The translations under genes were made by a program, and so were the position numbers. Shown here one piece after another: positions 15,024 through 42,284 of a stretch of 64,000 nucleotides of DNA. The DNA comes from a virus. Below the pieces are notes generated by a model. That model did no database searches. It saw only the letters and a program-made list of their open reading frames with translations, and had not been told where the DNA came from. Location: the IMG/VR virus record IMGVR_UViG_3300045988_100580, positions 17,594 to 81,593 of that record. One strand, given 5' to 3'. Each line of letters opens with the position of its first letter. Position 1 is the stretch's first letter.

Positions 15024-17282
15024 ATGGGTGTCAAATGTCAGATAGAAAAAAAGGAAAATGAAATAAAACGGGTTAAGGCTCCTAACGGGGAGCCTTCCGT
15101 TCTTTACGAAAGTGCTTTAAAAGTATTAGGAAACAGCGAGCGGGCCCTTCAGGTATGGGCTAAGGCTTACACTCCTGGTTTTTTGTCGTATTACGGTCAT
15201 TGGAATAACCCGGCTCCAGGGGAGATGTTTAACACCGATCCCAATGGCGAACCTCTTTTAGAAGATGTGCTGTCGTATATGAAGCGTCAGACTTATTTTG
15301 CTGATCCTTTAACGGCTCAGGACATTAAGGATGTAAGGGATTTCCTTTTGTCTACTCATTATTTTTTCAATGCGTCTTCATTGTCTAATGCTATTCTCTT
15401 CGATTTTTATGTAGATGGCAGTTTGATACTGAATGAGCAGAAATTAAGGAGATCCGGTTTGTATGATGAAACAGAAATAAGTCGTATTTTATCCGATCCT
15501 TCTGTTTTAAACGAGGTTTCGACTTCCATGAGAAAGTTAATAGATTCTTCTATTAACGAACATGATAGGGAAAAAGATAATTATTTTATGTCTATTGACT
15601 ATCAGTATGGTCCTATTGTTTACAAGGAGGGAGTGTTTAACCAATTTGGTAAAAAAGTACCATATAATCCTTCTGAGCTTTATTGGGCTATGGGCAAAAC
15701 AGTAGCCGGCATAAAAAACTTTTCTGAATTTTCATCTGCTTTTGAATCGTTGAGAAACTCATACCCTGAACTGGTTGAGAAATTCGTTTCTGATAAAGAA
15801 TTTGCCGAATCTATGTTTGATGAGTTCTCATCTACGAATAAGATTCCGGTAATAAACATAGAAGGGGATGATGTGGTAGAAGGCAAGAGAAGATCCTTGT
15901 CTAAGCTACAAGATCTGTCTTATTACAATTCCGGCAAAATAGAGTTCCTAAGAGCTCGTATATCAGCTTATTTACATAGGGCTAATGCCGACACCGAATC
16001 CGACTTAAGAAGCATGATATGGGATATAGAAGAGGCTTGTACGTGGTTTGGCATAGATATAATAGGGACATCGGAAACTTATGATGGCACAGAAGAATCT
16101 TTGAATAAGATAGATAATTTGATGCTGGATCTTGATATTTATGTGGCCAGGCATAATGATGTAAATTATGCTCCAACGCTGGCATCTTCTATAGATGATG
16201 TTCTTGGTGATAGCACAGATTATTATTTTAGATTATTACCGGAGTATATGGATAATTTGAATATCGTTTATTCTGAATCCGATATAGACCCAGTAGAGGC
16301 ATTTGAGAAACATTCATTGCTTAAGGTAGGAGATAATCTATATCAAAGGATCAGCAAAGATGATATTAACGAGATGTATCAAATATCAACAGTGTTAGCC
16401 AAGTACAACCTAACTCATTTTTCTACTAAAATATATCCTGAATCTTGTTTTAAGAACGGCGTTTTGGATAAAGAGAAAGTACGGAACGTAGATAATAATA
16501 CGCTCATGGATTCCATTAAAAAATACGTCAGATCGTTCATGGATTCTCAGAACACAGAGGACATGATAATGACCAGGATGGCGTTTGGACACCCGGCGGT
16601 ACTTGACGTTCCTTACGTGGATGTGGATCGGGAGTATAGTCGATACATGAACAAAAAACAAGATAGCGAAAACCCATTATCCTTATTCGATTTATACCAA
16701 TCTTACCTTGACAACAAACTCCATAAAACAAAATTATATGATAATGCCTATAAGTATCTTGACTTCAAACCTGGTCCATCTTTGGGTCTTATTTCTGATG
16801 ATCCTGATATTTTGAAATCAATAGAATTATCTTTATCTGGAAAAGACAGGTTGATGTTGTTTGATTATAGCATGACCAGTACCGACCCTTCTTTATCAGA
16901 ATTGTTTTATTTGGAGAGGTATGACCCTTCGTATGCTGGGAATGATTTTGAACACTATTTTTACACCAGGCACCCGTATTTGTTAAAAGAAAAATCGGGT
17001 TCTAATATCGTAGAGCAAGATGGTGTTATAACAGCAGAAGGTATTTATGATAATTTTATAAGAGTAGGTAATAAGATATGGTCTAAAGTAAGCGAGAGTA
17101 GTTCCGGCTCTATCTACCAAAATCTGACAGGAACCGAATCGGAGGTGAAATACGATTCTACTCAGAAGGCTAAGACGGTAGAAACTGATTACGCTCCATA
17201 CCAAAACAGATCTGGCTTGACGCAAGACATGACCGTAAGTAAGTCTGAATTGGATGATCTTAACAAATTGGAATGCAGGTAA
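15024..17282 (+). CDS. Hypothetical large protein, 752 aa
   Basis: 2.3-kb ORF with no recognised motif. Confidence 0.6.
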   Translation: MGVKCQIEKKENEIKRVKAPNGEPSVLYESALKVLGNSERALQVWAKAYTPGFLSYYGHWNNPAPGEMFNTDPNGEPLLEDVLSYMKRQTYFADPLTAQDIKDVRDFLLSTHYFFNASSLSNAILFDFYVDGSLILNEQKLRRSGLYDETEISRILSDPSVLNEVSTSMRKLIDSSINEHDREKDNYFMSIDYQYGPIVYKEGVFNQFGKKVPYNPSELYWAMGKTVAGIKNFSEFSSAFESLRNSYPELVEKFVSDKEFAESMFDEFSSTNKIPVINIEGDDVVEGKRRSLSKLQDLSYYNSGKIEFLRARISAYLHRANADTESDLRSMIWDIEEACTWFGIDIIGTSETYDGTEESLNKIDNLMLDLDIYVARHNDVNYAPTLASSIDDVLGDSTDYYFRLLPEYMDNLNIVYSESDIDPVEAFEKHSLLKVGDNLYQRISKDDINEMYQISTVLAKYNLTHFSTKIYPESCFKNGVLDKEKVRNVDNNTLMDSIKKYVRSFMDSQNTEDMIMTRMAFGHPAVLDVPYVDVDREYSRYMNKKQDSENPLSLFDLYQSYLDNKLHKTKLYDNAYKYLDFKPGPSLGLISDDPDILKSIELSLSGKDRLMLFDYSMTSTDPSLSELFYLERYDPSYAGNDFEHYFYTRHPYLLKEKSGSNIVEQDGVITAEGIYDNFIRVGNKIWSKVSESSSGSIYQNLTGTESEVKYDSTQKAKTVETDYAPYQNRSGLTQDMTVSKSELDDLNKLECR

Positions 17283-17324
17283 TTTTTGTATATATATATA
17301 GTTTTTTCATAGTTATAATTTGGG

Positions 17325-17352
17325 AAGTGAGGCTTGTAAAAGTCTCACTTTT
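17325..17352 (+). terminator. Stem AAGTGAG/CTCACTT, 12-nt loop, then TTTTCTT
   Basis: 7-bp perfect stem directly followed by a T-run, downstream of the 752-aa gene. Confidence 0.5.
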
Positions 17353-17788
17353 CTTATATATGCACGTATATCAATAACATACAAGAAAAGTTAGATTTTC
17401 ATTGTTTATGAATTATTTTTGTTAAGTTTGCAATATTAGTTTCAGGAAGGGATTATGGAAATAAGGAAAAAGTAAGAACCGAACGTAACTAATAACAGTA
17501 GGAAATGAGAATCAGTACCATCAAACGTAACAACAGCATTCATCTTATGTATAAAAACATTATGAATGATTTAGGTCAATTAAGAACTGTAGTTTCAAAA
17601 TCCTATATTTATAATCTGATACAAAATCAAACCGGATTAAGTATCATAACTATATCCCATGTACTTAACCATACCAAAGAACAGGATACGGATTCTTTGT
17701 GAAAAGCATGTATTTTCATACATTTGTTCGTTCTTTAGTTTTAGTGGGGAAAAGTTTTTCATGGTATTTTAGTTTAGATTAGTTGAGG

Positions 17789-17823
17789 CAGGATTCGCAG
17801 TGATGCGGATCCTGTTTTGATTT
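17789..17823 (+). promoter_or_regulatory. 11-bp stem CAGGATTCGCA/TGCGGATCCTG (one G-U pair) with GTGA (GNRA) tetraloop, then TTTTGATTT
   Basis: Strong hairpin inside the 750-bp noncoding stretch 17283-18036. Confidence 0.45.
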
Positions 17824-18036
17824 ACAGCGCTTTACCCAAAAAAGGAAAAGCGAAAGTTGCTGATTATCAATTTTTCCCCATAAATGGGGAAAACTACTCG
17901 TTGTATATTATATTTCCGTTTTTACTGAAAATCCTTCCATTTTATCGGAAACAAACTCAGCCTTGTTCCACCCTGCAATCATAATCTTTGTTACGTGCTT
18001 CATGCACGTATGTTTAACAATTAAATACTATAAAAT

Positions 18037-19045
18037 TATGGGTGGTGATAAAATCGTCCTTTTAGATGGAGCCGGGGCTAACGGTGGTGGTGCAGCCACT
18101 AACGGTCTTCTTTCAATGATTCCCGGCATGTTTGCTAATTTGATAGGTGGTAATAAAATGGATCCGAATCTGGTGGCGGCTTTGATGAACGGTCGTAACA
18201 ACCAGGACGGTTTCGGTGGGGCTAACGGTTGGTGGCTCTGGATAATTGTTTTGTTCTGGCTGTGGGGTGGACGCGGCTTCGGTAACGGTTTTGGAAATGG
18301 CGGTGATTGTTGCGCCAATGGTTTGCCGGCTCAGTTGAATAACGATTACGGTCGTGAACTTTTGATGCAGGCAATTCAAGGTAATCGTAGCGCCATAGAT
18401 CAGATTGCTTCTGCTTTGAACTGTTCTACTACTCAACTTCAGAACGCTATCTGCAACGTACAGGGTGCTATTGATAAAGTAGCTGGTCAGGTAGGTATGA
18501 CTTCTCAGGCTGTTATCAACGCAGTTCAACAACAAGGTTGTGAAATAGGAAATCAAATCAGCTCTTGCTGCTGCAATCTGAGTTCGTTGATTAATCAAAG
18601 CACTTGCCAGACTCAGGGAATGATTACTCAGCAAGGTTTTGATAACCAGCTTCGCACGTTGGAACAAACCAATATCTTGCAGAATGGTCTCAACCAAGGT
18701 CTGGCTAACAATCGTGAGCAAGCTACAAGCCAATTCAATATCTTGTCTGCGAAACTTGACGCCCAAACCGTTATGATCAACGACAAATTCTGTCAGTTGG
18801 AAATGAGGGAGATGCAGAACACTATTGCTCAACTTCGTGAAGAAAAAGCGGCTTTGACAGCTTCGGCATTATCTCAGCAACAAACCCAGAATATCGTTGG
18901 TCAATTACGCCCGACGGCCGTCCCGGCCTACCCCTCTTGTTCTCCTTACCAGGCTTATACTTGGGGACAGGTATTCGGAGGAGGTTGCTGTAATAACGGA
19001 TGCGGATGTAACAACGGATGTTGCAATAACAACGCTGCTGTCTGA
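18037..19045 (+). CDS. Low-complexity membrane-associated protein: Gly/Asn/Gln-rich, one Trp-rich TM segment, C-terminal Cys/Gly/Asn repeat CCNNGCGCNNGCCNNN
   Basis: Start taken at ATG 18037 (MGGDKIV); the track begins at 17963. The composition is highly unusual. A mirror ORF at 18113..18832(-) is treated as an artefact. Confidence 0.5.
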
Positions 19046-19068
19046 TTTTATTAAGAAAGGAGGCTAAT

Positions 19069-19482
19069 ATGGCTTGTGTTTCTAAAATAGGATCGTTGTA
19101 TGAGATGGTTACGAAGAATGTTATTGTCAGTACGACAAATACAGTCTTCGGTATTAACCCACGGGCTTGGATCGCCCTTCCGTGTGAGGGTCTTATCCTT
19201 CTTAAGATAAGGCAAGTAGTCCCCACAGCCGGAAGTGCTCTACCGGTACAGATTGCGGTCCCGGCAAACAGCACAGTTTCAACAGTAGGAGCCGACACCT
19301 GTTGCCCGGTTACGGGAGTGAATGTCGTGAACCCTATTAACGTAGCTGTCACGGGTGCTGCTATGGTAAATGGCACAGAACGCCTTCTGTACTTCAATAA
19401 AGTTCGTGGCGTGTTAAGATTAATGGATTGTTGTGTTCCGACAACAACAGCCCAGGCGTCTGAAGTTAAAGCAGGTAAATGA
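19069..19482 (+). CDS. Hypothetical protein, 137 aa
   Basis: AAAGGAGG 9 nt upstream of the ATG, followed by a terminator hairpin. Preferred over the overlapping 18822..19397(-) ORF. Confidence 0.55.
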   Translation: MACVSKIGSLYEMVTKNVIVSTTNTVFGINPRAWIALPCEGLILLKIRQVVPTAGSALPVQIAVPANSTVSTVGADTCCPVTGVNVVNPINVAVTGAAMVNGTERLLYFNKVRGVLRLMDCCVPTTTAQASEVKAGK

Positions 19483-19489
19483 TTTCAGT

Positions 19490-19517
19490 AGGGTGATGAA
19501 GATCATCACCCTATTTT
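19490..19517 (+). terminator. Stem AGGGTGATG/CATCACCCT with 5-nt loop, then ATTTT
   Basis: 9-bp perfect stem with only a T4 run. Confidence 0.45.
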
Positions 19518-19532
19518 CACCTAACTAATATT

Positions 19533-20027
19533 TTGATCATGTTTTCAGATTTGAAGAAAGGGTTTCAGGTACATACCCTTGATACTAATACAGTACCTAA
19601 ATACGAATTGGGAAAGGTAGTAGCCGTATCCGAACCCAGGTATCTTCCTCCTCAGCCAGGTCAGTATCAGGCGATGCAGACCCGCGTGGTGGATCTGACG
19701 GTAGAGCTCACTGGCGAAACCAAGACCTATACGGTCCCGGAATCCCAGAATGTGGCTAAGGCTATGGGCATAACATTATCTACCAGCATAGATCCGATTA
19801 TGAACGAACTGAATGCTATAAAAAACACCAGTCAAGACATAATAAACAGCGTAGATGCCCATCGTGCCAAGATAGAGGCTTGTGAATCTATATTAGAAGA
19901 CATCAATCCGGCATTCAAACAAACGAGAGAGCAGGATCGTAAAATAGCTGGTATAGAAAATAAGGTGAATGACCTTACTGATTCATTCGAAGATTTAAAG
20001 AAGTTAATTGTAGAACGTTTGAAATAA
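19533..20027 (+). CDS. Hypothetical protein, 164 aa
   Basis: ORF track; no motif recognised. Confidence 0.5.
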   Translation: MIMFSDLKKGFQVHTLDTNTVPKYELGKVVAVSEPRYLPPQPGQYQAMQTRVVDLTVELTGETKTYTVPESQNVAKAMGITLSTSIDPIMNELNAIKNTSQDIINSVDAHRAKIEACESILEDINPAFKQTREQDRKIAGIENKVNDLTDSFEDLKKLIVERLK

Positions 20028-20034
20028 GTGTAAT

Positions 20035-20403
20035 ATGATAGTATATGATTTAAATTCAGGACACAGAGAATATCCTGGATATGACGAGATAGAAGACAGA
20101 CGAGGTGGAGGCAGAGGCAGAAGCCGGCGTTCTGATGGGACGTACATGGGGTACGGTGGTGGTATTTACGACCATTACGGTATGCATGAGAAGATGAAGG
20201 AAATGGAAGAACGCGAAAACGAGCTGGAAGAAAGGGAAAGAAGGCTTGAAGAGCGCGAACGTCGTCATGAAATGGAGGACCGGGAATACCGGAGGATGGG
20301 TTACGAATCCTACCCGACCGATTACTATGGAGACGACAGATACTACGGTGACGGACCTCAGATGCGTAGAGGTCGCGGACGTGGCAGAGGTCGTTCTTAT
20401 TGA
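20035..20403 (+). CDS. RGG/RG- and Tyr-rich low-complexity protein with ERE repeats (ends GRGRGRGRGRSY)
   Basis: 122-aa ORF ending at TGA 20401-20403. The same frame continues open to 20790. Confidence 0.5.
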   Translation: MIVYDLNSGHREYPGYDEIEDRRGGGRGRSRRSDGTYMGYGGGIYDHYGMHEKMKEMEERENELEERERRLEERERRHEMEDREYRRMGYESYPTDYYGDDRYYGDGPQMRRGRGRGRGRSY

Positions 20404-20496
20404 GGAGCAGACGCAGAGGATCCAGCTTATCAGAAATATGTAGATACTTACGGCTACCATTTTTCTAATGCTCTCGCTGATGAGGCGGTAAAGAAG

Positions 20497-20790
20497 ATGG
20501 TCAACGTCGATGGATCCAAGAGGATCTGGAAGCAGCCGGAAATAAAAGATATTTTTGAAAAGTGCGGAGCGAAGAAGCCGGATAAAGCGACATGGGGCGA
20601 TGTCCAATATGTCTTTGCAATGTACTATTCGGATGGTTTTCCGAAGGTCTTCAAATGTGAGAACGAGTTGGTGAAAGCTACGTTAATGTATTTGGATGAT
20701 CCGGATGCTCCCGAAGGAGTAGCCTTTATAAGATGGCTTGCCGTGCAAGATTACCTCGGCGAAAAAATAAACTGGAAGGATCTGACCTGA
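20497..20790 (+). CDS. Hypothetical globular protein; the frame is open from 20404, directly after the TGA of the RG-rich ORF
   Basis: First ATG at 20497. The 31 codons between TGA 20401 and ATG 20497 look coding (GADAEDPAYQKYVDTYGYHFSNALADEAVKK). Confidence 0.5.
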   Translation: MVNVDGSKRIWKQPEIKDIFEKCGAKKPDKATWGDVQYVFAMYYSDGFPKVFKCENELVKATLMYLDDPDAPEGVAFIRWLAVQDYLGEKINWKDLT

Positions 20791-21132: not shown

Positions 21133-21154
21133 ACCTATTTTTTTCAATACCAGG

Positions 21155-21190
21155 CCCGATGCGATTTTAACGTATCGGGTTTTTATTTTA
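21155..21190 (+). terminator. Stem CCCGATGCG/CGTATCGGG (one G-U pair), 7-nt loop, then TTTTTATTTTA
   Basis: GC-rich stem immediately followed by a T-run. Confidence 0.55.
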
Positions 21191-39115: not shown

Positions 39116-40816
39116 TTATTTTTTGTCATCTCCTTTTAGCTTCTTTAAAGTATCTGCAATCGGAAGCTGATCAATGACTCCCAATGCCGGAGCGACGGTC
39201 TTAACAACATTGTTAAGGAAATTACCGGTACTGTTCTGACCGCCGTCAAATACCGTGATATTTCCGAGGTTAATGTGCTCAAATGCCTTAACCTGTTCTC
39301 CGGCAATTTCTTTCCACTGATTAACCATCTTGTACTGGATGGCGATCTGAGGATTGGATTCTGCTGCTTCCACCATAGCCTTAAATCCGTCGGCTTCTGC
39401 CATTAACGACTTTTTTTTACCTTCGGCTTCTGCCTCCAGCTTCATCTGAATAGCTTTTGCCTCTGCCTCAGCTTTTGCCAAATGTGCTGCTGCCTCAGCC
39501 TCAGCCCGGCGTTTGATCTTCTCGGCCTCGGCATCAGCTTGCAAGATAGCCTCTTCCTTCTGGGTTTCAGCCGGCACAATCTTTTCAGCCTTAAGCGCAG
39601 CCTGAACTTTCTTAGCCTTAGCTTCTTCCACTTCTTTGTCGGCAAGCTCTTTTGCTGTTTTTACAGCCGCTTCCGATTTAACTTTTTCTTCTCCGGCCTT
39701 CTTCTCTGATTGAGCTTTGATGATCTGTAGTTCTGATACTGACACAGCAACCTCCTTCTGGGCATTGTTGTATCCTATAGACGCATTTTTCTCAGCCTCA
39801 GCCTTCTTAATCTGAGCTTCAGAGTCTTGTATTGCTATAGCTGCTTCCTTGTCAGCTTCAGCCTTATTCTTTCCGACTTCTTCCATCCTTTCAGCCTCGG
39901 CTTTATTTACTTCAAGTTCTGCCTTAGATCTTACGATCGCCGATTCCTTGTCGGTTAAAGTTTTTGCGATAACCGCAGCCCTGTCTCTATCTGCTTGAGC
40001 TACACCAATCTGTTTCTCTTTATCGGTTAAAGCTAAAGCTATTTCTTTTTCTTTCTTCGTTTCAGCTACTATCGTTTCCTTTTCTTTTTCAGTACAAGCA
40101 ATTTGAATCTCTTGTTCTTTTTTGGTATTAGCTACAGCCGTTTCTTTCTCCTTCTGCTGTACAGCAATCTTAATAGCACCCAGCTTCTCCTGTTCTTCGA
40201 TATTAGCCTGTGCTTCGTTCAGAGCCCTACTTTCAGCTTCCTTACCAAGGTTCATAATATAACCGGCTTCGTCTCTAATGTCACTGATGTTGATGTTCAG
40301 GAGGTAAAGACCTAACTTATTAAGCTCGTTATCAATGTTCTTTCTTGCCTTATCCAAAAACTCATCCCTGTCAGAATTAAGTTTTTCGATTGTCATTTCA
40401 GCAATAATCAAACGCATCTGACCGTAAACGATGTCCGTAATAAGATTTTCAGTAGATTCGGTATCCATCCCCAAAAGTCTTTCTGCCGCATTTTGCATGA
40501 TTTCGGGATTTGTACTGATAGCTACTGTAATGGTCGTAGGTACATCTACTCTAATATTCTGAGATGACAAAGCACCGGTAAGCTTGCAATCTATTTGCAT
40601 AGGCTCCATTGACAAAACATCATAGCTTTGAATAATAGGCAAGACAAATGCCGCTCCACCATGATATAATTTTGCCGACTTCTTTTCCCCACCTGTCTTA
40701 CCGTAAACGACCAAGACCTGATTAGGCTTACATCTACGATACCTTGATAAGACTCCGATGATTGTCAAAATAATCACTACAGCTAAGATAGCTGACACGT
40801 ACATGATTGTTGTCAT
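39116..40816 (-). CDS. SPFH/band-7 flotillin-like protein (YqiK/FloT-like)
   Basis: N-terminal TM, SPFH core, then a long Ala/Glu/Lys-rich coiled-coil with EA repeats and a C-terminal conserved tail. Confidence 0.7.
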   Translation of the reverse strand: MTTIMYVSAILAVVIILTIIGVLSRYRRCKPNQVLVVYGKTGGEKKSAKLYHGGAAFVLPIIQSYDVLSMEPMQIDCKLTGALSSQNIRVDVPTTITVAISTNPEIMQNAAERLLGMDTESTENLITDIVYGQMRLIIAEMTIEKLNSDRDEFLDKARKNIDNELNKLGLYLLNINISDIRDEAGYIMNLGKEAESRALNEAQANIEEQEKLGAIKIAVQQKEKETAVANTKKEQEIQIACTEKEKETIVAETKKEKEIALALTDKEKQIGVAQADRDRAAVIAKTLTDKESAIVRSKAELEVNKAEAERMEEVGKNKAEADKEAAIAIQDSEAQIKKAEAEKNASIGYNNAQKEVAVSVSELQIIKAQSEKKAGEEKVKSEAAVKTAKELADKEVEEAKAKKVQAALKAEKIVPAETQKEEAILQADAEAEKIKRRAEAEAAAHLAKAEAEAKAIQMKLEAEAEGKKKSLMAEADGFKAMVEAAESNPQIAIQYKMVNQWKEIAGEQVKAFEHINLGNITVFDGGQNSTGNFLNNVVKTVAPALGVIDQLPIADTLKKLKGDDKK

Positions 40817-40847
40817 AACTTTTAAAATTTAATTGTTGATAAAAAAA

Positions 40848-41342
40848 TTAGATACTTAATTCTCCTTCTTCATATTTTATATTCGCCTTGTCGCCGTTTT
40901 TGTAGGTTTTTCCAGACAAGCATCTTACTCTCATTTGCTCTTGTCTTCCATTTTTCGAAATATTTACCATATAATGATTCTTCCCTGATCTAAATACTAT
41001 CTCCACTTCTCTTCCGTTTAAATCTTCCGGACATTCGTACACCATTTCTTGCTTTAACTTAAGAAGTAACTTATATACGTAAAACAAAACGATAAAGAAA
41101 AACGACCCTATCACAACCCCTACTAAATGGGAACCCGAAAAGTAAGTAGTCCAGCTATATCCAAGAATGAAATGTGTTATGCCCTTGAATGATATGATGT
41201 CCGACAAAGACATGCTTAAATCAGAAGCACTGTCAATGTCAATATCCGTATCCAGATCAGATCCTAATATCGACAACAAAAACTGTATAACAAAAGCAAA
41301 TGACGCTATTAAAGCCATGCATAAAATTATATCACTTCCCAT
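40848..41342 (-). CDS. NfeD-like (YqiJ/YuaF-like) membrane protein, the usual flotillin partner
   Basis: Multiple N-terminal TM segments plus a C-terminal beta-barrel-like soluble domain. Encoded immediately upstream of the flotillin gene, as in yqiJ-yqiK operons. Confidence 0.5.
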   Translation of the reverse strand: MGSDIILCMALIASFAFVIQFLLSILGSDLDTDIDIDSASDLSMSLSDIISFKGITHFILGYSWTTYFSGSHLVGVVIGSFFFIVLFYVYKLLLKLKQEMVYECPEDLNGREVEIVFRSGKNHYMVNISKNGRQEQMRVRCLSGKTYKNGDKANIKYEEGELSI

Positions 41343-41583
41343 ATCCTTCTGTTATTATTTTGTAAACAAGATCAGTCATATCTTTGATGGTCTCCATATC
41401 ATAATCAATAATAACAATATTGAATTTTTATTCCACCATCATTTCAAGTTCAATTTGATCAAGAGAATCTAATCCAAGTTCTTTAAACGTCACATCTTCT
41501 TCATGAACTATATCCATTTCTGAATTAAGAAACTGAGTAATAATTATATCCTCTATAATCTTTCTGATTTCTACTTTTTCCAT
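41332..41583 (-). pseudogene. acpP: Acyl carrier protein gene interrupted by an in-frame TAA (at 41428-41430) where ACPs have Glu: MEKVEIRKIIEDIIITQFLNSEMDIVHEEDVTFKELGLDSLDQIELEMMVE*KFNIVIIDYDMETIKDMTDLVYKIITEGYGK
   Basis: Clear ACP signature LGLDSLD (phosphopantetheine Ser) and an overall 82-codon alignment to E. coli ACP. A single in-frame stop (TAA against GAA) splits it. ATGA overlap with NfeD. Confidence 0.6.
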
Positions 41584-42284
41584 TGCTTTCTAATTTTGTT
41601 AAATAAATACGTTTTTATGTTTTTCAATCTCTCTTTGTCTGTTTCAGAACTTCCGGTAAACAAATAATCCGGATTGCCTTTAGCCGGCGGCGTAGGCAAT
41701 TTAGATACGGCAAACAACCAATCCATTTCCTTATTCTTCTTAGACTCCAAATAAGGCTCGGTAGCGATCTTGAATTTTTCAGCTATTAAGTCGAAGAGCT
41801 TTGAGTTTTTAAGGTTCATATGGACTGAAAAAGCCTGAGAAGGCGGTTTCCATATAAAGTTACATAAGCTCATTGTATAATCTCCTGACTCTGCTATATA
41901 AGATTCCGTTACCTGAAGTATGACCTCTTTCTTGAATGAGGTGTTACCCATAAACCAACACAACCTGGATTCCGCTTCTTTTCTGCTGACACCTATGTCT
42001 TTTGAATACGATTCGTACATTCCTATCATAATCTTCAACGTTTCCAGAACCTCGTCTGTCATCTCCGGTGTCTCTATATAATTCACAAAAGACGTTCCTT
42101 TGTTGGTCAATCTCATCACGCCTGATTTTAATTTCTCAACCAGGCCAAGCTCTATATACCTCCCAGCATCTTTTTCCAGCATGGCTTCGATCATAACCGT
42201 ATCCTTCTGTCTTATAGCAAGAAGATTAGCCAGATCATTAGGAGTCATGTCTGATGCTGCAAGTTGTCTGAAATTGATGTACAT
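41571..42284 (-). CDS. Hypothetical protein, 237 aa
   Basis: ORF track. Confidence 0.5.
   Translation of the reverse strand: MYINFRQLAASDMTPNDLANLLAIRQKDTVMIEAMLEKDAGRYIELGLVEKLKSGVMRLTNKGTSFVNYIETPEMTDEVLETLKIMIGMYESYSKDIGVSRKEAESRLCWFMGNTSFKKEVILQVTESYIAESGDYTMSLCNFIWKPPSQAFSVHMNLKNSKLFDLIAEKFKIATEPYLESKKNKEMDWLFAVSKLPTPPAKGNPDYLFTGSSETDKERLKNIKTYLFNKIRKQWKK

Follow-up and report, generated by a model that had tools for sequence, protein, structure and literature searches.

The window considered here is a stretch of 64,000 nucleotides from the IMG/VR virus record IMGVR_UViG_3300045988_100580 (positions 17,594 to 81,593 of that record). The gene under study, here called C0, encodes a protein rich in glycine, asparagine, glutamine, and cysteine. 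It opens a conserved operon, and the C-terminal tail of its product co-varies with the protein encoded by the next gene, C1. This is the main point of the locus, and it was missed by the first-pass annotation, which was made from the sequence alone.

The open reading frame (ORF) of C0 starts with an ATG at position 18038 and extends on the plus strand to a stop codon ending at 19045, giving a product of 335 amino acids. The strand and the approximate length are those first proposed for it, with the start now placed at 18038 instead of 18037. Residue counts bear out the proposed composition (13.1% glycine, 11.6% asparagine, 10.7% glutamine, and 5.1% cysteine, the latter amounting to 17 residues). 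The region of the window between positions 17000 and 21000 is 96.8% identical to phage csAssE-Sib (OR575929, 151 kb), a large crAss-like virus for which ring and muzzle proteins are annotated and whose own C0 gene is 99% identical to the one studied here. Since seven of the nine substitutions between both genes fall at third codon positions, and seven are synonymous against two that are not, the frame is, judging from this pattern, coding and under purifying selection. The substitution pattern and the 3,285 homologues described below confirm that the gene is real and lies on the plus strand; the minus-strand ORFs at 18113-18832 and 18822-19397 fall within conserved plus-strand genes. In the window, C0 directly follows a block of very large proteins annotated as structural. 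The features of the gene are the following.

18038 to 19045, plus strand: C0, the gene of this study, a member of phrog_16490 (ORF, profile match, homologues, and substitution pattern)
18227 to 18265, plus strand: codons 64-76, hydrophobic core of the WWLWIIVLFWLW type, the sole membrane-like helix, with Gly/Asn/aromatic flanks (sequence, AlphaFold2, and homologues)
18545 to 18907, plus strand: codons 170-290, long predicted helix forming the Q/N-rich stalk (AlphaFold2)
18566 to 18574, plus strand: codons 177-179, CCC motif; across 34 diverse homologues C179 never varies, and C177 and C178 show at least 90% conservation
18926 to 19042, plus strand: codons 297-335, variable C-terminal tail, here Cys-rich (CCNNGCGCNNGCC); tail class and C1 subtype co-vary (homologue comparison)

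The hydrophobic stretch GWWLWIIVLFWLWGG occupies residues 63-78, with a strictly hydrophobic core of only about 13 residues and a tryptophan flanking the helix at both ends. In all 107 homologues examined this core comprises 13-16 residues and has Gly-rich segments on both sides, and its flanks, made of Gly, Asn, and aromatic residues, are near-neutral (K+R of 0.54 upstream and 0.69 downstream). The AlphaFold2 model, built with 34 diverse homologues, predicts helices at residues 65-76 and 96-165 and one long helix at 170-290, where the predicted local distance difference test (pLDDT) score is about 82-95 over residues 200-290, while both ends are disordered. This agrees with the single transmembrane-like helix and the long helical middle part that had been read from the sequence. 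The best-conserved regions are the N-terminal part, with a 'DPNLVAALMN' motif and the anchor, and residues 96-180; the C-terminus is variable.

Cysteines are found as a CC pair at residues 91-92, as the CCC motif at residues 177-179, and in the C-terminal tail GGGCCNNGCGCNNGCCNNNAAV, which carries CC, CxC, and CxxxC. Conserved Cys pairs and Pro-rich linkers occur in the C0 tail. Of the cysteine motifs named in the first-pass annotation, CCC stands, whereas inspection of the sequence revealed no true CxxC anywhere in C0. The Cys-Gly-Asn repeat ascribed to the C-terminus corresponds to a tail that is indeed present, but it is a pseudo-repeat at the protein level only, with no DNA tandem repeat detected beneath it by Tandem Repeats Finder, and it represents a minority variant in the family. 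The N-terminus is likewise as rich in Gly and Asn as had been described, yet it is not built of the real repeats proposed there.

C0 matches phrog_16490, whose function is not assigned in PHROG, with an E value of 2.5e-43 (residues 37-328 against profile positions 6-284 of 286). The family comprises 3,285 proteins at E<=1e-3, or 935 representatives after clustering at 50%. Almost all of them come from phages or prophages whose hosts are Bacteroidales of the gut and rumen. Several families of crAss-like phages (cr116_1, cr52_1, cr1_1, and others) and many viral contigs of 35-75 kb are among the carriers; the sole cultured one found is Bacteroides phage C3_41T2LP (host B. uniformis MB20-41), whose C0, C1, and C2 proteins are WLZ21182.1, WLZ21181.1, and WLZ21180.1. 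When one genome per species was considered, 47 C0 loci were found, nearly all in Bacteroidales, which appear to be prophages. Their hosts are Bacteroides, Parabacteroides, Paraprevotella, Prevotella, Alistipes, Muribaculaceae, and Paludibacteraceae, with Paraprevotella xylaniphila YIT 11841 and Parabacteroides segnis BX2 as named prophage carriers. Phage crAss001 carries neither the C0 gene nor any of the operon.

Viruses assigned to Methanomassiliicoccales also carry a C0 homologue with the same architecture and the same PHROG annotation. In one of these viruses, Caudoviricetes sp. vir335 (BK063680, locus L008, 6857-7780), the homologue is a true C0 with the Gly-rich anchor, two CCC motifs, and an 'FCQIKSRE' sequence, and is found without recognisable C1 and C2 partners. 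Either the assignment to this archaeal order is questionable, or members of the family occur on both sides of the boundary between bacteria and archaea. Some database entries call for caution: in the C0 'homologues' P0141 and P0219 the sequence before the Gly-rich region is foreign (in the two cases, an acyl-CoA-dehydrogenase-like segment and a DnaJ J-domain with its G/F region), and both are probably assembly chimeras formed through low-complexity Gly codons.

A conserved operon with an exchangeable tail and partner

The operon was defined by clustering the ORFs of about 140 loci. Its gene order (HTH-C0-C1-C2-C5-C4-C3, where HTH stands for helix-turn-helix) is constant down to 25-30% identity in C0 and is common to crAss-like phages, temperate prophages, and the 150-kb phage. 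Across the family, its members are as follows.

Small HTH gene, about 65-130 amino acids: three unrelated families alternate (DnaA_C-like, LacI-like, and Xis/TerS-like), one of which is always upstream of C0 in relatives
C0, about 300-335 amino acids: phrog_16490
C1, about 110-200 amino acids: phrog_31654
C2, about 170 amino acids: phrog_28898, with a beta-rich N-terminal part and a coiled coil
C5, about 90-120 amino acids: acidic and RGG protein
C4, about 140 amino acids: DUF7841
C3, about 140 amino acids: invariant H-E-x-x-H...E and a C-terminal Cys cluster, which in relatives ends the protein as CxCxCC

The window holds a reduced version of this operon, consisting of the HTH gene, C0, C1, C2, the RGG protein, and DUF7841, and has no counterpart of the HExxH gene. 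Besides C0, the following genes are found.

17505 to 17702, plus strand: HTH gene, 65 amino acids (cluster c57/c12), called 'lactose operon repressor' in csAssE-Sib
19069 to 19482, plus strand: C1, 137 amino acids, phrog_31654-type of the 'long' subtype, predicted as an all-beta sandwich resembling tail-fibre tip domains
19539 to 20027, plus strand: C2, about 162 amino acids, phrog_28898, beta-rich at its N-terminus with a C-terminal coiled coil, 34% identical to its counterpart in cr116_1
20035 to 20403, plus strand: C5-like protein, 122 amino acids, acidic with an Arg/Gly/Tyr low-complexity part, ending in RGRGRGRGRSY
20404 to 20790, plus strand: C4, DUF7841 (PF25223), of 97 amino acids from its first ATG at 20497, with the N-terminal part of the family encoded at 20404-20496

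The coupling between C0 and C1 is seen in the combinations in which their variants occur. Cys-rich C0 tails ('...GCGC'; CCNNGCGC in the window phage) are found with a long C1 of 137-202 amino acids in all 12 distinct pairs, and the C1 proteins that accompany them contain cysteine as well. Tails ending in '...FWG' or '...FWY' occur instead with a short C1 (35 pairs) or with a subtype of 128-142 amino acids (8 pairs), and those ending in F with a further short subtype. Most C0 homologues end in a Gly/aromatic '...FWG' segment with 0-2 cysteines. An exchange of both parts is apparent in loci L089 and L090, which are almost identical to L026 and L038 through the end of the stalk, after which the tail and C1 change together. 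Because tail class and C1 subtype co-vary and are swapped together, the C0 tail is proposed to dock C1 in the manner of a stalk and its knob. The predicted fold of C1, modelled by AlphaFold with database homologues, is similar to that of domains at the distal end of tail-fibre and collagen-like fibre proteins, and one C1 relative has a weak match to BclA_C.

Profile searches of the PDB with C1, C2, and the HExxH protein gave nothing meaningful, and NCBIfam scans of the operon partner proteins gave no match. C1 shows no similarity to the crAss001 head-fibre protein gp29, nor does BLASTP detect any between C1 and the neighbouring protein in cr116_1. Inspection by eye found no obvious N-terminal signal peptide in the C1-C5 proteins, C1 beginning with MACVSK.

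A peculiarity of the last two genes in the window is that the TGA of the RGG gene (20035-20403) is followed in the same frame by 31 codons without ATG, GTG, or TTG, which encode the conserved N-terminal part of DUF7841 (20401-20496 with the TGA included). The same in-frame TGA arrangement is found in locus L140 (5544-5675), a relative at 69% nucleotide identity, and its conservation at that distance suggests read-through or recoding that would yield a C5-DUF7841 fusion.

Deletions, transcription signals, and neighbouring genes

Among public assemblies of the 150-kb lineage, many deletion variants of the operon were found at loci equivalent to window positions 18038-20790 (L140 4001-5176; L142 4001-4597). 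In them, C0 is cut anywhere between residues 122 and 305 and joined, often in frame, to C1, C2, C5, or C4, and joins between C1 and C4 also occur. Two such variants were verified on near-complete genomes: a C0-C2 fusion on a contig of 150.5 kb, and a C1-DUF7841 fusion that lacks C2 and C5, with half of C1 lost, which is present on at least 23 contigs, 14 of them of 50-200 kb. In-frame deletions of these kinds are carried by genomes of 150-152 kb. Given that natural 150-kb genomes delete parts of it and that crAss001 lacks it, the operon is accessory, and it is a rearrangement hot spot, possibly due to selection against its products in some hosts.

The exact Bacteroides -7 motif TAnnTTTG lies 26-90 nucleotides upstream of C0 in 31 of 57 loci, compared with 3.1% of random windows; as the loci are mutually related, the P value of this enrichment is indicative only. 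Upstream of C0 in the window itself there is no exact TAnnTTTG motif. Three terminator-like hairpins bracket the HTH gene and the operon there, and a palindrome lies between the HTH gene and C0.

17322 to 17353, plus strand: terminator-like hairpin with a 14-bp stem and a T-rich tail, after the upstream gene of 752 amino acids, likely the left edge of the transcription unit
17789 to 17814, plus strand: inverted repeat CAGGATTCGCA/TGCGGATCCTG followed by TTTTG, forming a terminator-like hairpin that separates the HTH gene from C0
17872 to 17893, no strand: perfect palindrome TTTTCCCCAT-AA-ATGGGGAAAA, a candidate operator
21152 to 21182, plus strand: terminator-like hairpin with a 12-bp stem including 6 GC pairs and a T-rich tail, likely the right edge of the operon

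The sequence TGGGGAAAA is present in six copies in the window (0.95 expected by chance), three of which are clustered at 17745-17893, upstream of C0. Given this clustering of half-sites, the palindrome is a candidate for the operator of the small HTH protein encoded next to it. In csAssE-Sib (locus L001, 13940-14824), a Bro-N/KilAC-type antirepressor gene is found between the HTH gene and C0, which is missing from the equivalent interval of the window (17703-18037). Some database proteins are antirepressor-C1 or antirepressor-C0 chimeras, and the gap between HTH and C0 seems to gain and lose mobile antirepressor genes.

In temperate elements the operon is followed by an integrase gene on the opposite strand, which gives it a moron-like position beside attP and the integrase. 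The gap between operon and integrase holds variable cargo genes in temperate relatives (L030 11257-12269, L035 11568-12338, and L067 11503-12783), such as a DUF4065/Panacea-like gene paired with a membrane protein, or a protein taken as NYN/LabA-like. This region looks like a defence or moron island.

Lysis genes, public labels, and known systems

The first-pass annotation had considered a spanin or holin-like lysis factor of a new type. The lysis cassettes of relatives comprise a holin (PF05105, Phage_holin_4_1), various endolysins, and a spanin-like or DUF6808 gene, and they are separated from C0 by the HTH gene and the operon's own promoter motif. In csAssE-Sib, the cassette (an M15 endopeptidase, a membrane protein, and a signal-peptide protein) is located at 40137-41636 of the record and C0 at about 96.6 kb, so that some 56 kb lie between them and the cassette falls outside the window. 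C0 begins with MGGDKIVLL and has no lipobox, and no lipoprotein partner was found for it, the downstream C1 not being a lipoprotein. A lysis function is thus weakened on several counts: cassettes are complete without C0, the gene comes with a promoter and regulator of its own, a lipoprotein partner is missing, and there is no linkage to lysis genes in the lineage of the window phage. C0 is probably not a cell-lysis protein.

Several identities from this field were examined. A spanin is disfavoured by the location of C0 outside the cassette, the missing lipobox and lipoprotein partner, and the spanin-like gene already present in relatives. A holin was rejected on size and architecture: holins are usually shorter than 150 amino acids, cross the membrane with one to four helices, and are charged at the C-terminus, whereas C0 has 335 amino acids, a single short core, and a helical remainder of 250 amino acids, and relatives have a holin upstream. 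A releasable anchor of the signal-arrest-release type was rejected on a core that is strongly hydrophobic and not Gly/Ala-rich, and an outer-membrane beta-signal at the C-terminus on the fact that most tails end in W-G, not in F. The spanin-like gene of the relatives' cassettes (for instance L028 6974-7381 and L061 6771-7235, among loci L021-L092) encodes 125-200 amino acids; its product is built like a unimolecular spanin, having a lipobox at the N-terminus and a membrane helix at the C-terminus. The DUF6808 protein, which ends in a Gly/aromatic segment, alternates with it at the same position of the cassette and may be an alternative factor disrupting the outer membrane.

The statement that the protein matches no standard structural or lysis family was confirmed by searches in Pfam, NCBIfam, PADLOC, and PDB. 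Scans of C0 and 34 family members against the first three produced only scattered coiled-coil noise, and the matches of C0 and C2 to PADLOC defence models remained at the coiled-coil level (the ZorA tail at E=7e-4; LmuB and DruC for C2), with no domain match. A PDB search with the single C0 sequence and with the family profile returned only sub-threshold coronavirus HR1 matches: the profile matches the HR1 helix of several coronavirus S2 proteins at positions 96-136, over about 40 residues, with a best E value of 0.011. Among the 34 family members, CoV_S2 was matched by one and Spike_torovirin by two, all at E>=0.012. A Foldseek search of the C0 model, which is poor, against viral structures gave nothing at E<=0.001. 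An identity of C0 as a class I fusion or coronavirus S2 protein was rejected, the similarity being sub-threshold and explained by composition, and no fold match being found. The csAssE-Sib record labels its C0 homologue 'spike protein/glycoprotein', a label that goes back to this sub-threshold coiled-coil similarity to coronavirus HR1. In the literature searched, no mention was found of the C0 family, csAssE-Sib, DUF7841, or a crAss 'spike glycoprotein', and papers on BV01/Salyersviridae do not mention the operon. The family is catalogued but uncharacterised.

The design of the C0 unit recalls that of fibre-plus-tip cassettes, of spanins, and, by analogy only, of the spike subunits of enveloped viruses, and it differs from each of them in defining traits. 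Fibres with separate tip, adhesin, or chaperone genes include T4 gp37/gp38, Mu S/U, and lambda stf/tfa. As in these systems, the gene for the shaft precedes that for a small partner, the C-terminus of the shaft and the partner are exchanged together, the partner has a tip-like fold, and the whole is dispensable. In contrast to them, C0 has a membrane-like helix, an N-terminus conserved across unrelated phages, and an alpha-helical Q/N-rich shaft, and its unit adds four further genes and a regulator; no sequence homology was detected. With the spanins (lambda Rz/Rz1 and the unimolecular T1 gp11), C0 shares a single membrane helix, a long Cys-bearing coiled coil, and a usual place beside the lysis cassette. 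Unlike a spanin gene, however, it is neither embedded in nor overlapping with the cassette, has its own promoter and HTH gene and no lipoprotein partner, encodes a protein two to three times the length of an i-spanin, and is unlinked to lysis genes in the lineage of the window phage. Coronavirus S2 shows the same heptad helices rich in Q, N, A, and L and the same combination of a hydrophobic Gly-rich segment, a coiled coil, and a separate binding subunit, but the phages carrying C0 have no envelope and nothing indicates fusion activity. A further parallel is p16.7 of phi29, which has a membrane helix, a coiled coil, and a C-terminal binding domain, and has an organising role in phage processes on the inner side of the membrane. 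C0 could be compared to it as an accessory protein with a bitopic anchor, oligomerisation through a coiled coil, and a functional end facing the cytoplasm, although there is no homology, C0 is much longer, its functional end would be a separate variable protein, and no DNA-binding domain was identified.

Possible roles of the C0 complex

The reading preferred here, with a probability of roughly 0.35, is that C0 provides the anchor and stalk of an accessory, membrane-anchored stalk-and-knob complex at the host envelope. The short Trp-flanked helix (residues 64-76), placed between flexible Gly-rich linkers, would enter the host cytoplasmic membrane, and the Q/N-rich helices (residues 96-290, approximately) would oligomerise into a stalk of about 20 nm, with the CCC layer linking its chains through a metal or a disulfide. 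The variable tail would then dock C1, the separately encoded knob. C0, C1, C2, the RGG protein, and DUF7841, together with the HExxH metallopeptidase in most relatives, would be made as one operon from its own promoter, downstream of the gene for the HTH regulator. In the producing cell, stalk and knob would most likely face the cytoplasm, because the other proteins of the operon have no obvious N-terminal signal peptide on inspection. The conservation of the N-terminal anchor across unrelated phages, in a family confined almost entirely to Bacteroidales, argues for a constant host partner such as the membrane. Its place of action is probably the envelope, in a dispensable role directed at the host, for instance superinfection exclusion or membrane control late in infection.

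This proposal of a membrane complex is supported by the Trp-flanked helix, the shared N-terminus, the restriction to one host order, the presence of a regulator and a host-type promoter, the moron-like position, and the signal-less partners. Several observations weigh against it. Bacterial membrane helices usually have a longer hydrophobic core than this one, and a positive-inside analysis of the 107 homologues gave no topology. The model of the whole protein is poor (mean pLDDT of 60.6 and predicted template modelling score of 0.28). The fibre-tip-like knob and, in the tail, the Cys pairs and Pro-rich linkers are features seen more typically in extracellular or virion proteins than in proteins of the cytoplasm. 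In most relatives the operon comes just after the lysis cassette, which could mean a role linked to lysis, and we know of no close precedent for an exclusion system of six genes.

Those traits of knob and tail are at the center of the other reading that is still strong, that of an accessory virion fibre (on the head, or a side fibre or whisker), which is possible but tentative. C0 would form the trimeric coiled-coil shaft and C1 the receptor-binding tip, with the other genes encoding assembly factors and the hydrophobic N-terminus buried or shielded by a chaperone. The C1 fold and the weak BclA_C match fit this well, and the joint swap of tail and C1 is the pattern of fibre-tip and adhesin genes. 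The tail has Cys pairs, and disulfides are used in crAss001 virions; the Pro-rich linkers of the tail also speak for a fibre, and accessory fibres are typically dispensable. The operon also lies in the late/structural region on the same strand, and in crAss001 the head-fibre gene gp29 occupies the equivalent interval from lysis to capsid genes. Nevertheless, a strongly hydrophobic, Trp-flanked helix is unexpected in a soluble fibre, and true fibre anchors are lineage-specific, whereas this one is conserved across unrelated virions (crAss-like phages, 35-75 kb prophages, and a 74-kb phage). Structural genes do not usually come with an HTH gene of their own, a host-type promoter, and terminators, and no role in fibre assembly is known for the RGG, DUF7841, or HExxH proteins. 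More doubtful than the fibre is an extended version of the membrane proposal, in which the operon would be a new spike-like membrane apparatus, composed of the stalk C0, the exchangeable knob C1, and four cofactors, acting at the host envelope, for example in superinfection exclusion or envelope remodelling, its specificity being reset by swapping tail and knob and its DUF7841 protein being produced by TGA read-through in the 150-kb lineage.

A factor spanning the periplasm, similar to a spanin tether, would have its N-terminus inside, its helix in the inner membrane, and its tail at the outer membrane, and the signal-less partners would reach it once the holin has opened the membrane. The position directly after the lysis cassette in most lineages speaks for it, and a membrane helix with a Cys-bearing coiled coil recalls lambda Rz, for which intermolecular disulfides are established; the modelled stalk, of at least about 18 nm, is of a length suited to crossing the periplasm, and the tail, rich in Gly and aromatics and with a terminal aromatic, resembles the C-terminus of DUF6808. 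It is nonetheless unlikely: the cassettes already hold a spanin-like gene or DUF6808, an HTH gene and a promoter stand in between, the lysis genes are about 56 kb away in the lineage of the window phage, the partners are neither lipoproteins nor, by eye, secreted ones, deletion variants persist in nature, and the positive charge usual on the N-side of a type II anchor is missing. The suggestion of the first-pass annotation that C0 might be a virion protein penetrating membranes is retained at still lower odds. In that case, C0 would be carried in the virion and ejected at infection, and its helix would insert in the recipient membrane as a pilot or channel, with C2 or DUF7841 as possible chaperones. 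Ejected phage proteins can have hydrophobic helices (crAss001 gp45 has a predicted one and has been proposed as a channel), and C0 follows the block of very large annotated structural proteins, but proteins of this kind are normally essential and lineage-specific, while the operon is common to unrelated phage types, is missing from crAss001, and fits poorly as such with its natural deletions. The variable pair of tail and knob would also be left unexplained. Least probable is a metal-binding or redox membrane protein having the Cys tail and CCC as functional sites. The 17 cysteines, the metallothionein-like tail, the near-universal CCC, and the CxCxCC end of the HExxH partner in relatives would agree with it; against it, the Cys-rich tail is a minority variant, Pfam and NCBIfam scans found no similarity to any metal or redox family, and the co-variation of the tail with C1 suggests docking.

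Temperate Bacteroidales phages and crAss-like phages count among the commonest viruses in the human gut, and most of their genes have no known function. Here, an odd ORF leads to a defined six-gene operon of uncharacterised families, common to unrelated phages of one host order, which contains an exchangeable specificity cassette and is often deleted in natural populations. The analysis also sets right a misleading label, 'spike glycoprotein', which is being propagated in public records. Whether it serves in exclusion, as an accessory fibre, or as an aid to lysis, the operon would bear on how gut phages compete and choose their hosts.

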